A stretch of DNA of 64,000 bases, from contig JAFUGE010000006.1 in NCBI GenBank assembly GCA_017469545.1, positions 95,167-159,166 on the forward strand. Direction: 5' to 3'. Positions 8,384 through 49,951 of the stretch are shown here, piece after piece. Origin of the DNA: Clostridia bacterium (GTDB taxonomy: Bacteria; Bacillota; Clostridia; TANB77; UBA1234). The notes beneath the pieces are model-generated. The model did no database searches. It was not told where the DNA came from and worked only from the letters and a program-made list of their open reading frames with translations. Each line of letters starts with the position of its first letter. The first letter of the stretch is position 1. A program made the position numbers and the translations under genes.

Positions 8384-9439
8384 ATGTTTGATAAACTAGA
8401 GAGCGTGGAGAAGCGCTATGAAGAATTGAATATGAAAATCAGCGACCCTGAGGTGATTGCGAATCAATCAGAGTGGAAAAAGCTTATGAAAGAGCACGCT
8501 GATATTGAGGATATTGTGGAGAAGTATCGAGAGTACAAAAAAGTTGTTAATACCATAGAAGAACTAAAGGAAATGCTAAATGACAAGGAAATGCACGATT
8601 TAGCGCAGGCCGAGCTAGACGAGAGTAAGGAAAAACTTCCTAAAATCGAAGAAGAATTGAAGCTTTTATTAGTTCCGAAGGACCCAAATGACGATAAAAA
8701 CGTTATTATGGAGATTAGAGGCGGTGCTGGCGGAGAAGAGTCTTCTCTTTTTGCGGCAGATTTGTTCAGAATGTACAGTATGTATGCGGAGAAGAAGAGA
8801 TGGAAGTTTGAAGTAATGAACTTGAATGAAACAGAGCTTGGCGGCATCAAAGAGGCATCCATTATGATAACGGGTAAGGGCGCATACAGCAGATTGAAAT
8901 TTGAGAGTGGCGTGCATAGAGTGCAAAGGGTTCCAGAGACGGAGACGAGCGGTAGAATTCACACTTCTACGGCTACGGTGGCTGTGTTGCCGGAAGTAGA
9001 CGATGTGGAGATTGAAATCAATCCTACTGATTTGAAGATAGATACATTCCGTTCTAGCGGCGCCGGTGGACAGCACATTAACAAGACGGAGTCTGCTATT
9101 AGAATTACGCATATTCCGACGGGCGTGGTAGTGGAATGTCAAACAGAGCGTTCTCAAATCCAAAACAGAGAATCGGCTATGAAAATGCTTCGCTCGAAAC
9201 TTTATGAAACAGAGCTTGAAAAGCAGAATTCAGAGCTTGCAGCCGCAAGAAGAAGCCAGGTTGGAAGCGGCGATAGAAGCGAGAAAATCAGGACTTACAA
9301 CTTCCCACAAGGAAGAATTACAGACCACAGAATTGGCCTTAGTATGTTCCAAGTAGACGAGTTTATGAATGGCGGCATAGACGAGATGGTGGATGCGCTT
9401 AATGCGGCGGATCAAGCAGCTAAACTAAGTGATGAGTAA
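8384..9439 (+). CDS. prfA: peptide chain release factor 1
   Basis: GGQ motif ([14 protein letters not shown]) and an RF1-type PxT region (QRVPETE). Confidence 0.9.
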
Positions 9440-41141: not shown

Positions 41142-42863
41142 ATGTTAAAGTATTTAAAAAAATATTGGTATGCTGTGATTCTGGCGCCACTACTTATGAT
41201 AGTAGAAGTATATGGCGACTTAACAATACCAAAGCTAGTTGCGAGAGTAATTGACGAGGGAATCGCAGTGCAAAATGAGGCGATAGTAAATGAAGTAGGA
41301 TTAAAAATAATTCTACTTACGTTATTAATGCTAGTTGGTGGAGTAGGATGCGCGATATTTGCAAGTATTGCAGGCCAAGGATTTGGTGCAGAACTAAGAA
41401 AAGATATGTATAAAAATATACAGAGTTTTTCTTTTGCAAATATTAATAAATTTAAGACATCTTCACTGATTACAAGACTTACTAATGATGTAACGATGTT
41501 AGAACAATTAGTAAAAATGGGACTTAGAATGATGGTTCGTGCGCCTATTATGTTTGTTGGCGGAATCATTATGGCGATTTCTATTAATGCAAGGCTTGGT
41601 TTAATTATTGCCGTTGTTCTTCCTGTTATGATTATCATTGCGGCAATTATTGCTAAAAAAGGACTACCATTTTTTAATATCGTGCAACAAAAAATTGATA
41701 GAGTCAATAACGTTATCAGAGAAAATTTAATTGGTGCCAGAGTAGTAAAAGTATTCACGAGAGAAGAACATGAGGAAGAACGATTTGAAGTAGCGAATAA
41801 CGATTTAATGAATACAACCATCACAGGATTAGGAATTGTAATGTGGATTATTCCAGTGATATCGTTAATTATGAATTTAAGTATTGTGGCAGTTGTTTGG
41901 GTTGGCGCTAAGTTAGTTGGTGTGAATGGATTTGAAGTAGGAGATATCACTTCTTGTATTACCTACATTACACAAATTTTATTCTCATTAATTATGCTTT
42001 CGACTGCCATCATGAACTTAGCAAGATCAAAGGCGTCTTACGACAGAGTCAAAGAAGTGCTAAAAGAGAAAAGTGATGTAGTCAATGGTGAGAATCCTAT
42101 TGAGAAAGAGATTGAAAATGGCGAAATAGAATTTAAAAATGTTTGCTTTGCCTATAAAGATTCGGATGGCTCATATATCTTAAATGACTTAAACTTCAAA
42201 ATCAATCCTGGCGAAATTGTTGCCGTGCTTGGCTCTACGGGATCTGGTAAAACTACTTTGGTAAATTTGATTCCAAGAATGTTTGATGTATCCGAGGGAG
42301 AAGTTTCGATTGATGGCATCAATGTCAAAGATTATGATTTGAAAATTTTAAGAGAAAACATTGGATTAGTTTTGCAAAAGAATATCTTATTCTCGGGAAC
42401 AATTGCGGAAAATATGCGCTGGGGAAAAGAAGACGCCACAGACGAAGAAATTGAGAAGGCTTGCGAAATAGCACAAATAAGAGACTTTGTAGAAGGACTT
42501 CCGGAAAAATATAATACGCTTGTCGGACAAAGGGGCGTAAACTTTTCTGGCGGTCAAAAGCAGAGGCTTTGTATTGCCAGAGCAATTATCAAGAAGCCTA
42601 AGATATTAATCTTAGACGATAGTATGAGTGCTCTTGATAATTCTACAGAAAACAAATTAAGAGAAGCTTTGAAAAAAGAAATGAAAGATACTACTGTGGT
42701 AATGATTGCCCAAAGAATTAATACGGCCAAAAATGCAGATAAAATTATTGTGCTTGATAAAACGAGAATCGTTGGAATGGGCACACACGACGAATTAATT
42801 AACAAAAATGAAGTGTATACGGAAATATATAATTCACAAATGGAGGTGACATCAAATGGCTAA
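41142..42863 (+). CDS. ABC exporter, fused permease/ATPase (multidrug-type), first subunit
   Basis: Six-TM domain plus an NBD (GSTGSGKTT, LSGGQKQR, ILILDD). Confidence 0.85.
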   Translation: MLKYLKKYWYAVILAPLLMIVEVYGDLTIPKLVARVIDEGIAVQNEAIVNEVGLKIILLTLLMLVGGVGCAIFASIAGQGFGAELRKDMYKNIQSFSFANINKFKTSSLITRLTNDVTMLEQLVKMGLRMMVRAPIMFVGGIIMAISINARLGLIIAVVLPVMIIIAAIIAKKGLPFFNIVQQKIDRVNNVIRENLIGARVVKVFTREEHEEERFEVANNDLMNTTITGLGIVMWIIPVISLIMNLSIVAVVWVGAKLVGVNGFEVGDITSCITYITQILFSLIMLSTAIMNLARSKASYDRVKEVLKEKSDVVNGENPIEKEIENGEIEFKNVCFAYKDSDGSYILNDLNFKINPGEIVAVLGSTGSGKTTLVNLIPRMFDVSEGEVSIDGINVKDYDLKILRENIGLVLQKNILFSGTIAENMRWGKEDATDEEIEKACEIAQIRDFVEGLPEKYNTLVGQRGVNFSGGQKQRLCIARAIIKKPKILILDDSMSALDNSTENKLREALKKEMKDTTVVMIAQRINTAKNADKIIVLDKTRIVGMGTHDELINKNEVYTEIYNSQMEVTSNG

Positions 42864-44653
42864 TACTAATAACAATTCACCTCAAAGACCTATGGGAAGA
42901 GGAAGAGGTAGAGTAGCTTTTGAGAGTGCAAAGGATACAAAGGGAACTTTGAAGAGACTACTTAAGTACATTGAAAAAGATAAGAAAAAATTAGTTGTTG
43001 TATTTTTACTGGTTATCGTAAGTTCACTTACCAGCATTCTATCTACCTCAATTTTAAAACCTATCGTGGACGATTATATCGCTCCGAAGGATTGGCCAGG
43101 ACTAATTAGAATGATTGGACTAATGATTTTACTTGCTGTGATAGGCGCACTTGCAACTTTAGTGCAAAATAGAATTATGCTTAAGATATCACAAACTACG
43201 GTAAGAGATTTGAGAAGAGATGTATTCAATCAGCTAGTAAAACTACCAATTCGATATTATGATACGCATTCTAGCGGCGAGCTTATGAGTAGAATTACGA
43301 ATGACCTTCAAAACGTGACGGATATTTTATCTAGTAGTATTGTCAGTATCTTTTCCAATGTGCTTACATTTGTAGGAGTAACCGTGGCAATGCTAATGAT
43401 AAGCCCTACACTGACACTTTTAAATATTATAGCAATTCCAATTATTATATTGATCACTTCTAAAATTGCAAAAATCAATAGAAAACAATTTATGGCACAA
43501 CAAGCGGAACTACGGAAGAATCAATGGATTTATCGAAGAAAGAATTTCAGGCCAATATGTTGTCAAAGCTTTTGAAATGGAAAACAAGAGTATGGAGGAA
43601 TTTTCTGTTATCAATAATGATTACAGAAAAGTAGGAATCAAAGCAGAAGCTTTTGCGGGACTTGTCATGCCACTTGCAAGAAACTTAAATGGATTAACTT
43701 ATGCAGCTACCATAGTTGTTGCTGGAATATTAGGCGTAAGAGGAACATTATCAATTGGAGATTTTACGACATTGACGAGATTTGCAAGACAGTTTGGACA
43801 ACCGATTAATGAAATCGCAAATCAGTTTAGTTCGATTCAATTAGGATTAGCAAGTGCAGAGAGATGTTTTGAAATCATTGACGAGAAAATAGAGATTGCA
43901 GACGATATCAGTAAAGTGGAATTGGAAAATGTTAAGGGCGAAGTAAAAATCGAGGGCGTTTATTTTGGTTATGACGAGGGTAAAACAGTCCTTAAAAATA
44001 TCAATCTGGACGTGAAGCCTGGTGAAGTAATCGCGATTGTGGGCCCTACTGGTGCAGGAAAGACGACGATTGTGAACTTACTTACTCGTTTTTACGATGT
44101 TAACAAAGGCAGAATTTTGATAGACGGAATCGATATTAGAGATATGTCAAGAAAATCACTTCGTGAAGCAATTGGCATGGTGTTGCAAGACACGGTTTTA
44201 TTTGCAGAAACAGTGAGAAATAATATCCTATTTGGAAAGCTTGACGCCACAGAAAAAGAATTAGAGACAGCATCAGAAATGGCAAGAGCAGACGAGTTTA
44301 TTAATCACTTACGTGATGGCTATGATACACTTCTTAATGAAGACGGAGGCAACTTAAGTGTTGGTCAAAGACAGCTTTTAAACATTGCAAGAGTGTTTAT
44401 TAATCAACCTAAGATTTTAATCTTAGACGAAGCAACAAGTAATGTTGACACAAGAACAGAAGTAAAAATTCAAGAAGCAATGTTGGAGCTAATGAAAGGA
44501 AGAACAAGTTTTGTCATTGCCCATCGACTTTCCACCATTAGAAATGCTGATAAAATTATTGTCATTGACAATGGCCAAATCATAGAAGCGGGCACGCATA
44601 AGGAACTAATTGAAAAACAAGGAAGATATTATCAGCTATATACTGGTGTGTAA
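42856..44653 (+). pseudogene. ABC exporter, fused permease/ATPase, second subunit, interrupted by a +1 frameshift near 43513
   Basis: ORFs 42856..43575 and 43466..44653 are contiguous in sequence (...FMAQQAEL | GRINGFIEERISGQ...). Removing C43513 restores the frame. NBD motifs GPTGAGKTT and LSVGQRQL follow. Confidence 0.65.
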
Positions 44654-44662
44654 AGAGAAAAT

Positions 44663-44689
44663 TGTAGGGGCGGCGTATTACGCCGCCCA
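44663..44689 (+). repeat. REP-like repeat (3' CCCAC variant)
   Basis: TGTAGGGGCGGCGTATTACGCCGCCCAC. Confidence 0.8.
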
Positions 44690-44699
44690 CACACGTTTT

Positions 44700-45608
44700 T
44701 TACATTTTTTCGATTTCTTCTACTGAAAGGCCAGTGATTTCAGCAATTGTTTCTACTGGAATTCCTTTGTCCTTAGATTTTTTTGCAATTTCAATTTGCT
44801 TTTCTTTTCTACCACGTTTTTCGCCGCGTTTCTCACCACGTTTCTCACCACGTTTCTCGCCAACCTTTTCGCCCTCTGTTCTAGCATACTGTATTCCACT
44901 ATTGTAGTCTAGCTCCCATTTTCTCTTTAAAAAAGCTAATCTTCTTACAGCTTCGTCTCCCACTAAATATTCATATTCTTCGGAAGCTTCTTTGATTAAA
45001 TTATTTTTCTCCTCAGCCATTTTTACTAACTCCTTTCGTGAGTAATCAATGAATAAAAGCCATTGATCTAATTTCCTGTCAATATTGATTTCACTTCTTA
45101 AGAACTTAGGCAGTTCTATGAAGTGTATCTCTTGTTCTTCTAATGTTTTGCTTTTATTATGCTGCTCTGTCATTTTCCAGATAGTATGGTGCTCCTTAAT
45201 ATCTTTAAAATAATCGAAATTTAAGATACCAATGGCAATTGCTTTGTTTAATTCATTATATGTTTTTCCTTTTTGCAAATCGCTTGTATATAGCTGGTTT
45301 AAATAGTATGTCAATCTTTTTTCAATATTGCCTTGATTCACATTTTGCATTTCAATATCGATAAGAGTGCCATCGTCAAATTCGGCTCTAACATCTAATA
45401 TACCAACTTTATCGTCCAGGTTTTCAGGCAATAATTCTGTCTCTTTTTCGAGAATCACATCTTTGATTCTAATATTCAGAATAGCCTCAAGGAACTCTTT
45501 CACTTTCTCTTTACTTTTTACTCTGCCAAATAGCCTCTTAAAAATCACATCATTTTTAGGCACCAAAATTTCTTCTTCATTAATCATATTATACATCATT
45601 CCTTTCAA
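44700..45608 (-). CDS. Rpn-family (YhgA-like, PD-(D/E)XK) recombination-promoting nuclease / putative transposase
   Basis: N-terminal PKNDVIFKRLFG and ILDVRAEFDDGTLIDIEMQ nuclease core. Internal 12-bp tandem repeats encode (GEKR)4. C-terminal ...ITGLSVEEIEK. Confidence 0.7.
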   Translation of the reverse strand: MKGMMYNMINEEEILVPKNDVIFKRLFGRVKSKEKVKEFLEAILNIRIKDVILEKETELLPENLDDKVGILDVRAEFDDGTLIDIEMQNVNQGNIEKRLTYYLNQLYTSDLQKGKTYNELNKAIAIGILNFDYFKDIKEHHTIWKMTEQHNKSKTLEEQEIHFIELPKFLRSEINIDRKLDQWLLFIDYSRKELVKMAEEKNNLIKEASEEYEYLVGDEAVRRLAFLKRKWELDYNSGIQYARTEGEKVGEKRGEKRGEKRGEKRGRKEKQIEIAKKSKDKGIPVETIAEITGLSVEEIEKM

Positions 45609-45872
45609 ATTTACTAGTCCTTTTATATCTTTTTGTCATTTGCATGGTTAATGATAAACTTCCTCCTTTCTTTTTATATTTCTTGTTTGGAAAAATTCTT
45701 GTAGCGGATGCTACAAAATAGAATTTGTTTAGATAGGCGAGAAGCCTATCTAAAGATTAAGTACATGTTACATTGGAATTTTTTATTTGTCAATACAAAT
45801 TTTGGAAAAATTTGTTGCTTTTTCGTTTTTAATTTGCTAGAATTTAATTGTAGGAAATTCACGGGCGTAATC

Positions 45873-45899
45873 GGGCGGCGTGATACGCCGCCCCTACAA
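45873..45899 (-). repeat. REP-like repeat, inverse orientation (first of a cluster at 45848-46327)
   Basis: CGGGCGGCGTGATACGCCGCCCCTACAA, preceded by a truncated forward copy TGTAGGAAATTCACGGGCG. Confidence 0.8.
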
Positions 45900-45932
45900 A
45901 TGTACGTCAATGTGGGCGCAAACCCGTATGCC

Positions 45933-45960
45933 TGTAAGGGCAGCGTAATACGTTGCCCAC
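45933..45960 (+). repeat. REP-like repeat, degenerate (GTAAGGG head)
   Basis: TGTAAGGGCAGCGTAATACGTTGCCCAC. Confidence 0.65.
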
Positions 45961-46049
45961 AAACAGGGTTGATACACGTTAATTGCAACAAAGATATAAA
46001 AATTGGAGGAAACAAATGAGAAATAAAAACCATGTAACCGTTGGGGCTG

Positions 46050-46067
46050 TACACACACACACACACA
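46050..46067. repeat. (AC)9 dinucleotide microsatellite
   Basis: ACACACACACACACACAC, ~300 bp upstream of the DGR target gene. Confidence 0.9.
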
Positions 46068-46100
46068 CACACGAACGTTTCGTTAAACATAGAATTTGCT

Positions 46101-46128
46101 CGTAAGGGTGGCGAATTACGCCGCCCAC
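46101..46128 (+). repeat. REP-like repeat, degenerate
   Basis: CGTAAGGGTGGCGAATTACGCCGCCCAC. Confidence 0.65.
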
Positions 46129-46246
46129 AGAACGCGTGCGAGAATAATAGAATAAGAGACGGATAAAATAGAGGCTGGCTTTGTGTCTTTTGGCACGAGG
46201 CTGGTCTTTTTGCGTTCTCGTGGTGGGCATGGCGGGCGGCGCAATC

Positions 46247-46327
46247 GGGCGGCGTAATACGCCGCCCCTACAAAATATGCATCAATGAGGGATACATGCC
46301 TGTAGGGGCAGCGTATCACGCTGCCCG
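46247..46327. repeat. inverse + forward REP-like pair
   Basis: CGGGCGGCGTAATACGCCGCCCCTACAA ... CTGTAGGGGCAGCGTATCACGCTGCCCG. Confidence 0.85.
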
Positions 46328-46362
46328 AAAAGAGAAATTAAAACGGAAGGAATGATTTAAAA

Positions 46363-47316
46363 ATGAAAAATAAAAAAGGTATTTCATTAATCAGTTTAAT
46401 TATTACAATTGTTGTGATTATTATTTTAGCAACAATTGTAATCAGAGGCACAGGAGATTCTGCAGAAGAAGCAAGGTTTGCAAGATTTGCACAAGAGTTT
46501 TCGGATTTCCAAGATGCAATTGACCAACAATTTTTATTTGCATACAAAAGATATGCCTTAAAAGCGCAGAGTGTTTCTAAGGCACAAATCTATTATGGCC
46601 TAGCGACGGGACAAACAGTAACGAGCAGTACGACACCAGTGGCTGCAGGCACGGTGGCTAGCCTTAGTATTCAGCCGAGTGCGCTTTTAGGCACAAATTA
46701 TTACGAAATTGCAAATGATACGAATATTCCAAATTGGTCGGAGGATAAAGGGTACACAACAGCGAGAAGTGCAGAGCATCACTACATTACAGACGAAGGA
46801 GAACTATTTACTCTACCAGGATATACGTATAGAGAAAATGGCACAACGAGTTACTATGTGAATGCCAGCAAGTATTATACAGGCAGCATGATAGACGTAG
46901 AAGATTTAGCAAGTGGTGGGACAGATTTGGAGAAGTTACAAGCTTTGCTTTTAGGAGATCAATATTATCCTGGATATAGTTTAAGCTTATCTGATGGCAC
47001 GAGTGCAATGTGGCTAGATTATAATACGACTACAGGTGATTTTATAGTAGGATATAACGACGTAGCGTACAGAGTCGTGTATGGCGAGGATACTAATGGA
47101 GATTGGGTAATCACAAGCGTCACATCTGCAGGTAGTGTTAATTTAAGTAGCTTAGGAATGCACAGTGGATCACTTGTGACATATAGAGGAACATTTACGA
47201 GTAGCCAATACTCACAAAATAGAAGTATCTATTGGGTAAATAATATTGATAGTACAGGCTATGATTTTGGATATGATGCTTCGGGGGCGCTCGTGTCTTA
47301 CCGGATTACCGGCTAA
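46363..47316 (+). CDS. candidate DGR target protein: prepilin-like N-terminus (MKNKKG|ISLISL + hydrophobic helix), Tyr/Gly/Thr-rich body, variable-region candidate at the extreme C-terminus
   Basis: The 3' end (47278..47349) shares an adenine-free 18-nt block and a 36-nt post-stop block with the TR at 48333..48416. Between them the gene has TCTTACCGGATTACCGGC where the TR has an A-rich segment. Confidence 0.55.
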   Translation: MKNKKGISLISLIITIVVIIILATIVIRGTGDSAEEARFARFAQEFSDFQDAIDQQFLFAYKRYALKAQSVSKAQIYYGLATGQTVTSSTTPVAAGTVASLSIQPSALLGTNYYEIANDTNIPNWSEDKGYTTARSAEHHYITDEGELFTLPGYTYRENGTTSYYVNASKYYTGSMIDVEDLASGGTDLEKLQALLLGDQYYPGYSLSLSDGTSAMWLDYNTTTGDFIVGYNDVAYRVVYGEDTNGDWVITSVTSAGSVNLSSLGMHSGSLVTYRGTFTSSQYSQNRSIYWVNNIDSTGYDFGYDASGALVSYRITG

Positions 47317-47349
47317 GTGAGCCGTTGCCAGCGGTGTGAGTCGGCGCAG
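47278..47349 (+). other. DGR variable-region (VR) candidate plus IMH-like 3' element
   Basis: GCTTCGGGGGCGCTCGTG (no adenines) + an 18-nt variable segment + TAAGTGAGCCGTTGCCAGCGGTGTGAGTCGGCGCAG. Both flanks are identical to those of the TR. Confidence 0.5.
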
Positions 47350-47404
47350 TTTCTATCCTCTAAAATCCATGGCGCAGAGCGTAACATGTCAGTAAAGTGA
47401 AATA

Positions 47405-47432
47405 CGGGCAGCGTACTACGCTGCCCCTACGG
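47405..47432 (-). repeat. REP-like repeat, inverse
   Basis: CGGGCAGCGTACTACGCTGCCCCTACGG. Confidence 0.85.
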
Positions 47433-47522
47433 ATTGTGCATACATATAATAATTACATGGAAACGTCATTTACCTTCGTGCCCACTTGGCACAACGTATT
47501 TTAAACAAGGAGAAAAACAATA

Positions 47523-47966
47523 ATGAATAAAATCATGATTGCTGTGAAAGAGGTACATCCTCAAGATATATGTATGTATAAAAAAGGCTCGTTTTACCAT
47601 GTGTATGATAAAGATGCTAACATAATGGCGTATTTTTTTGGCTATAAAATAAAAGAGATAAGAGGCGGTGAGATACAGGCGGGTTTTCCGCAAGTCTCTC
47701 TTCAAAAAGTATTGAATAAACTAGAAGAATATCAAATTAATTATGTGGTAATGGATAGAAGAAATCAGTATGATGTAGATTTTAAAAAGAATTTTGCGTT
47801 GGCAAATCAATATGAATTATACTGTCGTTTGGCTCGTAAGTATACGAACTGTTTGAAGCGTATTGATAAGCTATCTCGTTTTTTGAAAGAGAATATTCAT
47901 AAGGAAGAATTTTTAGAATTAATTTCTAGATTGGAAAAAATAGCATATGAGAGAAGAAAAGTTTAA
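47523..47966 (+). CDS. hypothetical protein (147 aa) within the DGR island, low GC
   Basis: ORF with RBS AAGGAG. Overlaps the avd start by 20 nt. No HuH or other recognised motif. Confidence 0.4.
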   Translation: MNKIMIAVKEVHPQDICMYKKGSFYHVYDKDANIMAYFFGYKIKEIRGGEIQAGFPQVSLQKVLNKLEEYQINYVVMDRRNQYDVDFKKNFALANQYELYCRLARKYTNCLKRIDKLSRFLKENIHKEEFLELISRLEKIAYERRKV

Positions 47967-48300
47967 AGTCATTCAGTTTATACGAAAATTAATTTTGGAA
48001 GTGGACAAAGAGCTTGAAAATTTTCCTAAAAAGGATTTAGAGATAAAGAATAGACTTAGAACTTCAAGTTATGATTTGTTGGAACTTGCGTATGAAGCAA
48101 ATTCCACAAAAAATTTGGAGTTTAAGCAGGAATTACTAACGCGAATGATTGCAAAGATAAAAATAATGGACTTTTTACTTAATTTAAGTTATGACAAAAA
48201 TCTACTAACGGAGAGAAAGTATTTGAAGTTAGCAAAAATCATTGACGATATTGCCAAGTATACTAATGGTTGGCAAAAAAATATCGTAGGGCAAAGTTGA
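47947..48300 (+). CDS. avd: four-helix-bundle protein, DGR accessory variability determinant (Avd)-like
   Basis: About 117 aa, with a pattern matching the four-helix-bundle/Avd family (FPKK...L..Q...S). Lies immediately upstream of the TR. Confidence 0.65.
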   Translation: MREEKFKVIQFIRKLILEVDKELENFPKKDLEIKNRLRTSSYDLLELAYEANSTKNLEFKQELLTRMIAKIKIMDFLLNLSYDKNLLTERKYLKLAKIIDDIAKYTNGWQKNIVGQS

Positions 48301-48332
48301 GAAAAGCGCACTTTTTTGGTTAGGGCATTATT

Positions 48333-48416
48333 GCTTCGGGGGCGCTCGTGAATTACGAAAAACCAAAAACCGAAAAATAATAAGTGAGCCGTTGCCAGCG
48401 GTGTGAGTCGGCGCAG
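48333..48416 (+). other. DGR template repeat (TR) candidate with IMH*-like 3' element
   Basis: GCTTCGGGGGCGCTCGTG + AATTACGAAAAACCAAAAACCGAAAAATAA (21 of 30 nt are A) + TAAGTGAGCCGTTGCCAGCGGTGTGAGTCGGCGCAG. Confidence 0.5.
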
Positions 48417-48575
48417 CTTCTAAAAAACTGTGGTTGCATTGACCAATTGTAATGCAAGAGAAGTTTTAGATAGAAACAGATTTTGTCCTTTCGCTTAAAT
48501 AGCGATAAAATAAAAATAGATAATCAAATTTGTTAGTAGCTTGATAGCGAAGGGGAGTTTGATTTAGTACTATTT

Positions 48576-49541
48576 TTAATGGTGCCTTAGTATTAAGGTG
48601 CCATTTTTACATAGGGCTTTGTAAAATACCAATGTTGAGCAAAGGCCATAGAGCGAAACGTTACCACATTGATATCTATGATATTTTAACTTTGTTTTTT
48701 TCTTTATCCTTTGATGCTTAGCATAAATGCCGGCAGTATTTCTTCCTAAAAAGATAAAGTTATTTTTATGATTATAAATTCTCGTTTTCGAATTTAAAGT
48801 GAGTTTTTCTTTTGCTAGAAATTTTTTGATTTCTTCCAGACAGTGTTTTAAATAGTCTTTTGATGGGTGAAATAGTAAAAAATCGTCTTGATATCTCACA
48901 TAGTATTTTACTTTTAGTTGTTCTTTGATAAAGTGATCAAGATCATTTAAATAAAATAAAGCTAGCATTTGACTTGTCATAGTACCGATATGGAGGCCTT
49001 CAGCATTACTGTCGATAATATCAAATACGATTTTTAATGCATCTTTATCTTTGATTCTGCGTGAAATTTTTTGCTTTAAAATATCATGATTAATACTGGC
49101 AAAGAATTTGGTAATATCGCATTTTAAAATATAAAAATTTTTGTATTTTATTTTACATTTTCTTCTATACATATTTGCAAGAGCAATTCCTTTGTTTGTT
49201 CCCATTCTCTTTCTAGAGGCGACGTTTGCGTCTGACAAACACGGAAGTAGGGAGGGATATAGAATATATTTTGTTACTAGGTGATTCACGATTTTATCTT
49301 CTATGCCTTGACTATAAATTTCTCTTGTTTTGGTGTCATGAATAATAAATCTATTATATTTTCCTACTTGATAATTTCTTTCGGATAATGTTTTGTAAGT
49401 CCTTGCGATGTATATAGATTGATAGTCACGAAGCAATTCTTTTTTACGCTTGCTCATTATATTCTGCGAAATCTTTTGATAGGCGTATTTGATATTTTGA
49501 ATATTGCACATGTTTTCATACAAATTATTTTTTCTTTTCAT
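48576..49541 (-). CDS. DGR-type reverse transcriptase
   Basis: RT motifs closely parallel the Bordetella phage Brt: NLYEN..AYQK, KCDITKFFASINH, the DGR-specific motif-4 IGTMTSQ (IGxxxSQ), YVRYQDDFLLF (YxDD), and NFIFLGRN. Start at MKRKNN has RBS GGAGAA. Confidence 0.85.
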   Translation of the reverse strand: MKRKNNLYENMCNIQNIKYAYQKISQNIMSKRKKELLRDYQSIYIARTYKTLSERNYQVGKYNRFIIHDTKTREIYSQGIEDKIVNHLVTKYILYPSLLPCLSDANVASRKRMGTNKGIALANMYRRKCKIKYKNFYILKCDITKFFASINHDILKQKISRRIKDKDALKIVFDIIDSNAEGLHIGTMTSQMLALFYLNDLDHFIKEQLKVKYYVRYQDDFLLFHPSKDYLKHCLEEIKKFLAKEKLTLNSKTRIYNHKNNFIFLGRNTAGIYAKHQRIKKKTKLKYHRYQCGNVSLYGLCSTLVFYKALCKNGTLILRHH

Positions 49542-49606: not shown

Positions 49607-49951
49607 CTATTTTTTTGCTACGGCTTTTTTAGCAACAGCTTTTTTAGCTGGAGCCTTCTTAGCGGCTGGTTTAGCAGCTACTTTTTTAGCTGGAGCTTTC
49701 TTAGCAGCTGGTTTAGCAGCTACCTTTTTAGCTGGAGCTTTCTTAGCAGCTGGTTTAGCAGCTACCTTTTTAGCTGGAGCAGCTTTCTTAGCAGCTGGTT
49801 TAGCAGCTACTTTTTTAGCTGGAGCAGCTTTCTTAGCAGCTGGTTTAGCAGCTGTCTTTTTAGCTGGAGCAGCTTTCTTAGCAGCTGGTTTAGCAGCTAC
49901 CTTTTTAGCTGGAGCAGCTTTTTTAGCTGCAGTTTTCTTTGCTACTGGCAT
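49607..49951 (-). CDS. Ala/Lys/Pro-repeat histone-H1-like basic protein (tandem 36-bp repeats)
   Basis: MPVAKKTAAKKAAPAKKVAAKPAAKK... RBS AGAAGGGGGGG lies upstream. The plus-strand ORF 49419..49976 (AFLAG repeats) is its mirror image. Confidence 0.6.
   Translation of the reverse strand: MPVAKKTAAKKAAPAKKVAAKPAAKKAAPAKKTAAKPAAKKAAPAKKVAAKPAAKKAAPAKKVAAKPAAKKAPAKKVAAKPAAKKAPAKKVAAKPAAKKAPAKKAVAKKAVAKK

Follow-up and report, generated by a model that had tools for sequence, protein, structure and literature searches.

A short oligo-A template repeat and variable repeats of unequal length in a diversity-generating retroelement of uncultured Clostridia

The usual description of diversity-generating retroelements (DGRs) is that they exchange residues on a rigid, lectin-like scaffold and leave the length of the protein unchanged. 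The 64,000-nucleotide (nt) stretch of Clostridia bacterium contig JAFUGE010000006.1 analyzed here (the window) contains a DGR in which identical flanking blocks enclose 30 nt in the template repeat (TR) and 18 nt in the variable repeat (VR) of the target gene. Does this mismatch mark a broken copy, or does it reflect the way the element works? The nearest relatives of the window reverse transcriptase (RT) share the short A-rich TR and also have TR/VR pairs that are not colinear. The mismatch is typical of this subgroup and is not evidence of a broken copy. Retrohoming that is prone to insertions and deletions (indels) across the oligo-A template is probably the best explanation for it.

Template and variable repeats of the window

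The region is a complete chromosomal DGR of the MSL and Avd architecture, consisting of target, msl, avd, TR, structured RNA, and a convergent RT gene. The parts are listed by position in the window and strand, with protein lengths in amino acids (aa).

46363-47316, +: target gene, an open reading frame (ORF) of 317 aa with the C-terminal end ...YDASGALV, SYRITG, and the stop
47277-47295, +: VR left block, a GC-rich 5' homology segment encoding ASGALV, 100% identical to the TR left block
47296-47313, +: VR variable segment TCTTACCGGATTACCGGC, 18 nt, encoding SYRITG, 12 nt shorter than the TR segment
47314-47355, +: VR right block, which opens with the TAA stop (47314-47316) and continues as non-coding, GC-rich sequence resembling an initiation of mutagenic homology (IMH)
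47358-47370, +: CTCTAAAATCCAT, located 3' of the VR and conserved in all three short-TR lineages
47523-47966, +: msl, a small MutS-domain-I-like accessory gene, 147 aa (Pfam MutS_I, E = 2.8e-7, 31.2 bits, above the cut-off of 20.6)
47947-48300, +: avd, accessory variability determinant, 117 aa (matches to Pfam bAvd and NCBIfam DivGenRetAVD)
48321-48328, +: TAGGGCAT motif, just 5' of the TR
48332-48422, +: whole TR including its blocks
48332-48350, +: TR left block, with the same sequence as that of the VR
48351-48380, +: TR variable segment AATTACGAAAAACCAAAAACCGAAAAATAA, 30 nt, 67% A, with three A5 runs
48381-48422, +: TR right block, IMH*-like; its C at 48417 corresponds to the VR T at 47350
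48417-48565, +: structured RNA directly 3' of the TR, a near-threshold match to Rfam RT-14 (RF02921)
48576-49541, -: RT gene, 321 aa from the ATG at 49541, ORF extendable to 49580 (Pfam RVT_1, E = 1e-16)

The locus is classed as a DGR because the RT, Avd, the shared TR/VR flanks, and the IMH/IMH* mismatch are all present. The RT gene is on the strand opposite to the TR transcript and converges with it. Its translation contains IGTMTSQ and YQDD, which are the [I/L]GxxxSQ and YxDD motifs of the DGR clade. The bAvd match to avd (E = 1.7e-9, 38.6 bits) is below the Pfam cut-off of 40, and the DivGenRetAVD match (E = 2e-11) is under the NCBIfam cut-off. The locus proteins are annotated as hypothetical in GenBank (MBQ9267057.1, MBQ9267060.1).

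The initial annotation, made from the sequence of the window, proposed a DGR TR/VR pair of unequal lengths with a very short diversified stretch, and all of these points were confirmed. The left repeat GCTTCGGGGGCGCTCGTG is present in exactly two copies in the window (47278-47295 and 48333-48350), with zero copies expected from shuffles. The right repeat TAAGTGAGCCGTTGCCAGCGGTGTGAGTCGGCGCAG is also present in exactly two copies (47314-47349 and 48381-48416), and none was found in any shuffled window. Extending the repeats by one upstream T and six downstream bases gives blocks of 19 nt and 42 nt with a single T/C mismatch, located in the 42-nt block. This mismatch distinguishes IMH from IMH* at the 3' boundary (VR ...GCAGTTTCT, TR ...GCAGCTTCT), and a VR T opposite a TR C or A before TTCT is present in every related DGR examined. 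Read in frame, the TR variable segment encodes NYEKPKTEK and then two successive stops, the first of which is TAA. The earlier statement that no single-gap alignment satisfies an A-to-N rule held when all alignments with a single 12-nt gap were enumerated, the best of which keeps two non-A mismatches. The best two-gap alignment has two codon-aligned deletions of 6 nt each, one non-A mismatch, and seven adenine changes.

Identical VR and TR sequences were recovered in two other assemblies and in a Logan contig (ENA, NCBI, Logan). Judging by their labels, the ENA samples with these contigs (XIEF21-1, SAMN158299xx) probably belong to a study of the ruminant gut. The two other assemblies of the window lineage are 99.8-99.9% identical to the window and differ by 2 single-nucleotide polymorphisms (SNPs) in 6.3 kb, a 2-nt microsatellite indel, and the repeat copy number in a histone-like gene. 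The 2-nt indel is at 46051-46052, in a TG/CA microsatellite that reads VCVCVCV on the minus strand. A search of other strains for a colinear pair, proposed along with the annotation, gave none: the same-species assemblies carry the identical pair, and the nearest lineages are non-colinear too. Exact-pattern scans of the IMG/VR and JGI metagenomes with the window blocks and a variable gap gave 0 matches, as did scans with the shared TR core plus the downstream RNA; the lineage is not in those collections.

Short-TR relatives and their variable repeats

A protein search with the window RT returned 1,474 relatives, the nearest being P0046 (70% identity, lineage S1) and P0050 (67%, lineage S2). 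These three RTs are mutually closest (67-74%) among the 15 top RT homologues compared. In the sequences read for the 32 best RT matches, the three have signatures such as FIIHD(T/S)K.REIYSQ in common. They are 60-69% identical to the RTs of canonical DGRs, which are 66-92% identical among themselves. Contigs of S1 and S2 have the gene order of the window and short targets of 298-327 aa, and their RT, avd, and msl genes are intact. The avd product is 117 aa in all three lineages, and msl is located between target and avd also in sister loci L086-L090 and in the canonical relative L091. The variable segments of the three TRs are the following.

Window: AATTACGAAAAACCAAAAACCGAAAAATAA, 30 nt
S1: AAGTGGAGGAGAAAAAA(A/C)CGAAAAATAATA, 30 nt
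S2: AGTAAGATTAAAATACCAAAAAAACCGAAAAATAATA, 37 nt

These short TRs of 30-37 nt are 60-67% A, contain runs of 5-7 A, and have in-frame stops; the S1 TR reads QVEEKK(T/P)KNNK-stop. The core AAAAACCGAAAAATAATAAGT is common to the window, S1, and S2, and the core AAAAA(A/C)CGAAAAATAATAAGT is found in all three lineages, followed by a nearly identical RNA element. The initial annotation also described internal duplications in both segments. Both are present, AAAAACC twice in the TR and TTACCGG twice in the VR with the copies 8 nt apart. The arrangement CC-A(5-7)-CCG-A5-TAATAAGT is shared by the window and S2 (ACC-A7-CCG), and the AAAAACC duplication in the TR is therefore ancestral and not recent. 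The flanking blocks of TR and VR are identical within each lineage and differ between lineages, which requires continued TR-to-VR transfer. On these sequence comparisons, the short-TR DGRs are a small conserved subgroup present in three lineages.

VR alleles were collected at the DNA level from RT-bearing contigs and from contigs found via the target protein clusters, which gave nine distinct alleles. The lengths of their variable segments, relative to that of the comparison TR, are as follows.

Window: -12 nt
S1: -6, -12, +1, -7, -15, and -8 nt
S2: -1 and -2 nt

All nine alleles are non-colinear with the comparison TR (-15 to +1 nt), and the difference is a multiple of three in four of them. 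The S1 TR is 30 nt in 4/4 loci that hold it despite having the longest A runs, which argues against plain DNA replication slippage. In two comparisons of otherwise identical S1 contigs, the VR was the sole difference. L087 and L089 differ at 12 of 3,330 aligned nt, all within the 18-nt VR, and L087 and L092 differ at 8 positions in 1,159 nt, all in the VR. Of the substitutions pooled over the nine alleles, 56 are at TR adenines and 11 at other bases (36% versus 5% of aligned positions, Fisher p ~5e-15, standard global alignments). The deleted TR bases are also mostly adenines (52 A versus 13 non-A). These data support the suggestion of the initial annotation that template slippage or length-variable retrohoming is responsible for the mismatch.

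The protein sequences of the tails carry the same signature. A search with the S1 target identified about ten more pilin-like clusters that end in ...YYD.SGALV followed by a tail of 6-14 residues. Of fifteen S1-type tails, 14 have R, Q, H, or P at position 1 and 13 have V at position 2; at position 3, E, A, G, or V predominate. This is the pattern predicted for adenine-only mutagenesis of the S1 TR codons CAA GTG GAG, which become C-N-N, GTG with no adenine to change, and G-N-G. One S1 allele reads through to a 22-residue tail. S1-type VR blocks were also observed on a second gene in the same contig (L088, 4175-4226) and on remote pilin-like genes (L096, 1300-1420; L098, 2400-2520). Two of the three remote copies, which are not beside msl and avd, carry the same blocks with variable segments of 21 nt and 27 nt; in the third (L097) the segment is 41 nt long and the right block is degraded. 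The S1-type DGRs probably serve several targets in trans.

The more distant relatives have canonical TRs. Eighty RT relatives from GTDB genomes of uncultured gut Clostridia and Bacilli, with at most 66% identity over the best aligned segment, were searched for TR/VR pairs by gap-tolerant self-comparison. Most of the 80 have A-biased TR/VR pairs, and RT homologues at 40-65% identity adjoin A-to-N pairs. Pairs of the closer relatives (46-65% RT identity) measure 110-180 nt, are ~30% A and rich in AAC (5-22 AAC triplets), and are usually free of gaps. Most of these loci have the order target-msl-avd-TR with a convergent RT; in a few, TR and RT share a strand and the TR is upstream. The targets of these relatives have the same pilin-like N terminus and a C-terminal WLAS-(VR of 40-58 aa)-RPVVSLKS arrangement with ~15-25 more residues. 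The window TR is homologous to these canonical TRs on its 5' side (TAGGGCAT...GCTTC..GGGGGC..GTGAATT) and on its 3' side (GCC..GGTGTG..CG.C..AGCTTCTA.AAACTGTGGTT plus the downstream RNA), and it is without their central AAC-rich part. Set against these TRs alone, the locus resembles a deletion derivative that may have decayed. The motif TAGGGCAT is common to the window and the canonical relatives and is missing from both sister short-TR lineages.

In-frame TR/VR indels at AAC runs were found in 5 of ~24 close canonical relatives (L009 +15, L010 -3, L011 +6, L025 +6, and L032 -3). The L009 TR has lost 15 nt that are still present in its VR. In L011 the VR exceeds its own TR by two AAC-derived codons; the sister locus L012 has a TR as long as that of L011, and the L012 pair is colinear. 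In L030 (~9170-9290, minus-strand reading) an msl-like coding sequence continues directly into the last ~40 nt of a TR and the RNA motif 3' of it, and only part of the RT is matched. L030 is a truly decayed relative and provides a contrast to the intact window locus.

Explanations for the length mismatch

The mechanism that we favor would begin with a plus-strand transcript that carries the TR followed by the conserved RT-14-like structured RNA. By analogy with the spacer region of phage BPP-1 and with RT-10, the RT with Avd would use this RNA to prime at the TR's 3' edge, and it would copy the 42-nt GC-rich block faithfully. Within the A-rich segment it would misincorporate opposite adenines and often lose register in the A5-A7 runs, mostly by skipping template bases, and complementary DNA (cDNA) synthesis would end on the 19-nt left block. 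The cDNA would then replace the VR via the two GC-rich blocks. The expected outcome is a C-terminal tail that varies in sequence and in length, and the 18-nt versus 30-nt difference in the window would be one such outcome. Substitutions, in-frame indels, frameshifts, and mutated stops are tolerated because the VR consists of the last codons and the stop, and all three reading frames end a few codons downstream. We infer that reverse transcription, and not the integration of the cDNA, is the source of the indels, and that the RNA element and MSL have roles in this DGR. The window copy may be currently active by analogy with the sister lineages.

Several observations weigh against this interpretation. 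All VR alleles come from metagenome consensus assemblies, and for three of the nine (L092, L093, and L094) the TR was taken from a sister contig of the same lineage. Selection for shorter tails, instead of a high indel rate, could be the source of the nine non-colinear alleles. Of 300 shuffled 18-mers, 252 align to the window TR with no more than one non-A mismatch; the interior of the window VR thus resembles a random 18-mer. The shuffles fit equally well because the TR segment is 67% A, and therefore the TR/VR relationship within the window alone rests on the flanks and not on the interior. The exact TTACCGG duplication is unlike independent random misincorporation and may have arisen at the DNA level, either later than reverse transcription or independently of it. 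The window lineage has one VR allele, the same in three assemblies, and its protein cluster contains no tail variants. These assemblies are near-clonal and come from one study, and the lack of variation is weak evidence either way.

The same observations lend some weight to a decayed or idle element that no longer homes, in which TR and VR have drifted by replication slippage or by small duplications and deletions in low-complexity DNA since the last homing event. The exact 7-nt VR duplication with its 8-nt spacing looks like a DNA-level event, the invariant VR and single tail are what an idle element would show, and the target is far shorter than its homologues, with a C-terminal half that has no detectable homologue. 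The canonical relatives supply precedents, a TR deletion without a VR update in L009 and true decay in L030. We nevertheless consider decay unlikely. The RT, avd, msl, the RT-14-like RNA, and both blocks are intact, and the blocks are 100% identical save for the family-wide IMH/IMH* mismatch. The short A-rich TR is conserved in three lineages at 67-74% RT identity and so is no recent lesion, a sister lineage of the same design is demonstrably variable at the VR only, and invariance among assemblies with 2 SNPs in 6.3 kb says little. A one-off decayed allele had been the leading interpretation after canonical colinear TRs were found in ~40 RT relatives along with the TR-only deletion in L009. 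It was dropped; the closest RT relatives share the short TR and have variable VRs. The decayed element considered in the initial annotation is thus not supported for the subgroup, although the window copy itself may at present be idle.

Another possibility is that retrohoming is colinear and that the length changes afterward on the VR side, through microhomology during cDNA integration, mismatch processing, or gene conversion among VR-bearing targets. In S1 genomes a VR is carried by more than one gene (a second VR in L088 and the remote targets L096 and L098), which makes conversion between paralogues possible; the cassette encodes a MutS-domain-I-like protein; and some alleles have non-A changes or, in L093, a changed base in the right block. 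However, the deleted bases are overwhelmingly template adenines in A runs (52 versus 13), which points to the copying step. Gene conversion moves diversity and creates none, and the L087, L089, and L092 contigs represent the same locus, with flanks identical over 1-3 kb. A change on the VR side is accordingly an improbable source of the mismatch. Least credible of all is an assembly artefact, in which the non-colinear VRs would be a chimeric or collapsed consensus of mixed populations. The data are all short-read metagenome assemblies, and several contigs break inside the repeated blocks (L083 and L086). Against this, the window VR was reproduced in the independent ENA, NCBI, and Logan assemblies, the variable segments of 15-37 nt are below read length and the usual k-mer length so that each allele is spanned whole, and alleles from different samples and studies each give ORFs with a nearby stop. 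We regard an artefact as extremely unlikely, and indel-prone retrohoming across the oligo-A template remains the explanation that we prefer.

Length differences of this kind have precedents. Wu et al. 2018 (PMC5758913) reported TR/VR indels in 7% of DGRs, proposed RT slippage as their origin, and found 74% of the indels next to AAC repeats. The mismatch noted in the initial annotation as a departure from canonical DGRs is therefore real, but unequal length is already known in ~7% of DGRs, and colinearity is thus a typical property of DGRs without being strictly a defining one. The VR is likewise short as claimed, but a mutagenic region of ~30 bp is at the stated lower end of the known range, with GC-rich flanks of 5-30 bp and 20-40 bp (Wu et al. 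2018, PMC5758913). A 2026 reconstitution study invoked template slippage by the Bordetella RT and found that retrohoming restores 18 missing nt. Because retrohoming can restore missing nucleotides in this way, the VR should equal the TR in length after a faithful event.

Target protein, RNA element, and relation to other DGRs

The target has a prepilin-like N terminus (KKGISLISLIITIVVIIILA) followed by a helix and a sheet module. The Pfam N_methyl match (16.2 bits) is below the cut-off of 21.2. The AlphaFold2 (AF2) model is confident for approximately residues 9-180 only, with a helix at residues 9-66 that, like KKGISLISLIITIVVIIILA, fits a prepilin methylation motif with its long hydrophobic helix, and the predicted local distance difference test score is <50 for residues 184-317. 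Residues 1-180 are 40-46% identical to pilin-like proteins, and the pilin-like relatives P0005, P0009, P0011, and P0016 end in WL(A/G)S...RPV motifs, like canonical DGR targets. In the homology search, matches were limited to the N-terminal part (~170-260 residues), a single identical tail was found, and the target was much shorter than its homologues. We did not detect a homologue of the C-terminal half in an exhaustive phmmer search of 1.84 billion representatives, or a Pfam domain within it. Support for a C-type-lectin or Ig fold of the C terminus was sought and not obtained: hhalign against the canonical target domain gave 0.4% probability, Foldseek against the PDB gave nothing usable, and the AF2 model has low confidence beyond residue 183. 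The YYDxSGALV motif suggested a YD/RHS repeat, which is without a Pfam RHS-repeat match and is kept as a lead only. In the homologous pilin-like protein P0181 (488 aa), residues ~320-488 consist of ...YYDDSGALV followed by a Hint/pretoxin-HINT domain in place of the short tail. Of the neighbouring ORFs examined between 41.1 and 54.1 kb, none was identified as a pilus assembly gene.

The DNA downstream of the stop is related to the coding sequence of canonical targets. GTAGTTTCTCTAAAATC, which encodes VVSLKS in those targets, is kept untranslated after the stop in the short-TR lineages, and DNA resembling CTCTAAAATCCAT is also found downstream of the stop after the VRs of L088, L090, L092-L096, and L098. 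Conservation of the VVSLKS-coding DNA suggests that it has a cis role in target recognition. A perfect GC-rich hairpin is located at 47405-47425, 50 nt 3' of the VR, and was considered as a DGR cruciform. It was rejected; the hairpin belongs to a dispersed repeat family in the genome and has no counterpart after the sister-lineage VRs. Six copies of this hairpin, GGGC(G/A)GCGTA.TACGC(C/T)GCCC, occur in both orientations within the otherwise AT-rich 2.8 kb around the target (44658-47434), for example at 44668-44688, 45873-45893, 46247-46267, 46306-46326, and 47405-47425, and they look like a dispersed element of the repetitive extragenic palindromic (REP) type.

The RNA 3' of the TR matches RT-14 (RF02921) over the full model length with 46.6 bits (E = 7e-5), below the gathering score of 48.1. 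Its sequence is almost invariant across short-TR and canonical relatives (e.g. L086-L091). RT-14 gave no match at the gathering threshold in four related loci. Weinberg et al. 2017 located RT-10 in the interval separating TR and RT of phage BPP-1 and suggested that other RT motifs serve DGRs. The full-length match directly 3' of the TR, with a score just under threshold, places RT-14 in a position like that of RT-10. By this analogy, the RNA is presumed to be a binding and priming element for RT-Avd. The conserved sequence and position would connect RT-14, an orphan motif, with this family of DGRs.

Comparison with other DGRs separates the shared machinery from the properties of the short TRs. 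As in the canonical DGR of BPP-1 type (target-avd-TR-RT), the window has an RT with IGxxxSQ and YxDD, Avd, GC-rich flanks shared by TR and VR, a single 3'-boundary TR/VR mismatch, and a structured RNA 3' of the TR, and the substitutions (in the sister lineages) are focused on adenines. Unlike that DGR, the window has a TR variable part of 30 nt built from A5-A7 runs and not from AAC/AAT codons; it includes stops as well as codons from which mutation can give a stop. The VR comprises the very end of the protein and its stop, the IMH-like block lies outside the translated sequence, the VR has no detectable C-type-lectin or Ig scaffold around it, the RT is on the opposite strand, and TR and VR differ in length in every short-TR allele seen. 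The canonical relatives among metagenome-assembled genomes of gut Clostridia and Bacilli (for example L006, L008, and L091) share target-msl-avd-TR with a convergent RT, the pilin-like N terminus, the TR 5' motif and 3' end, and the RNA. They differ in having TRs of 110-180 nt that are mostly colinear and VRs of 40-58 aa in a WLAS...RPVVSLKS domain that extends past the VR. The MSL DGRs of Wu et al. 2018 (PMC5758913), in which an MSL accessory gene accompanies avd (Architecture D) and TR and RT may be on different strands, resemble the window in their small MutS-like gene plus avd, different-strand TR and RT, indels, and ~30 bp region. In that collection indels are exceptional and located at AAC repeats, whereas here they are found in 9/9 alleles and in oligo-A runs, and frameshifts alter only the length of the terminal tail.

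The neighbours of the locus are ordinary chromosomal genes, including an ABC transporter and dnaX-ybaB-recR. Counts from promoter and terminator scans of the region were not above those of shuffles. The ABC transporter (42856-44653, +) appears to be split into two overlapping ORFs (42856-43575 and 43466-44653), each with part of the ABC_membrane domain; a frameshift, a pseudogene, or a sequencing error may be the reason. A PD-(D/E)XK transposase-like (Rpn-type) gene (44700-45608, -) has four GEKR repeats near its C terminus; the product has 302 aa in the window and 295 aa in a second assembly of this lineage. The histone-H1-like protein (Pfam HC2; 49607-49951, -) has AKKAAPAKK-type repeats encoded by 42-45-nt tandem DNA repeats, and is 114 aa long in the window and one assembly and 100 aa in another.

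Length differences, RT slippage, ~30 bp regions, MSL, and split strands are all in the literature. The novelty lies in a clade that combines them as a constant design and in which non-colinear pairs are the rule. One interpretation, which we advance tentatively and rate at somewhat less than an even chance, is that the subgroup no longer recodes a ligand-binding pocket on a fixed scaffold and instead diversifies a short C-terminal peptide in a programmed manner, free of any scaffold. The oligo-A tracts would be kept for RT slippage, with each retrohoming event changing length, frame, stop, and sequence. The RTs of the three lineages are unusually divergent and may have altered processivity.

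The short-TR elements also expose a blind spot in detection. Tools that need long, ungapped, AAC-rich TR/VR pairs miss such elements, and our first scan found the locus only when gaps were allowed. For DGR-based mutagenesis, they hint that template composition could be used to tune indel output, and the subgroup, if the proposed mechanism is true, would be a natural system in which to test how RTs slip on runs of adenine. Should a natural clade routinely make length and frame variants from an oligo-A template, the output of DGRs would be wider than substitution and would include, for example, variable peptide tails on pilus-like surface proteins of gut and rumen Clostridia.

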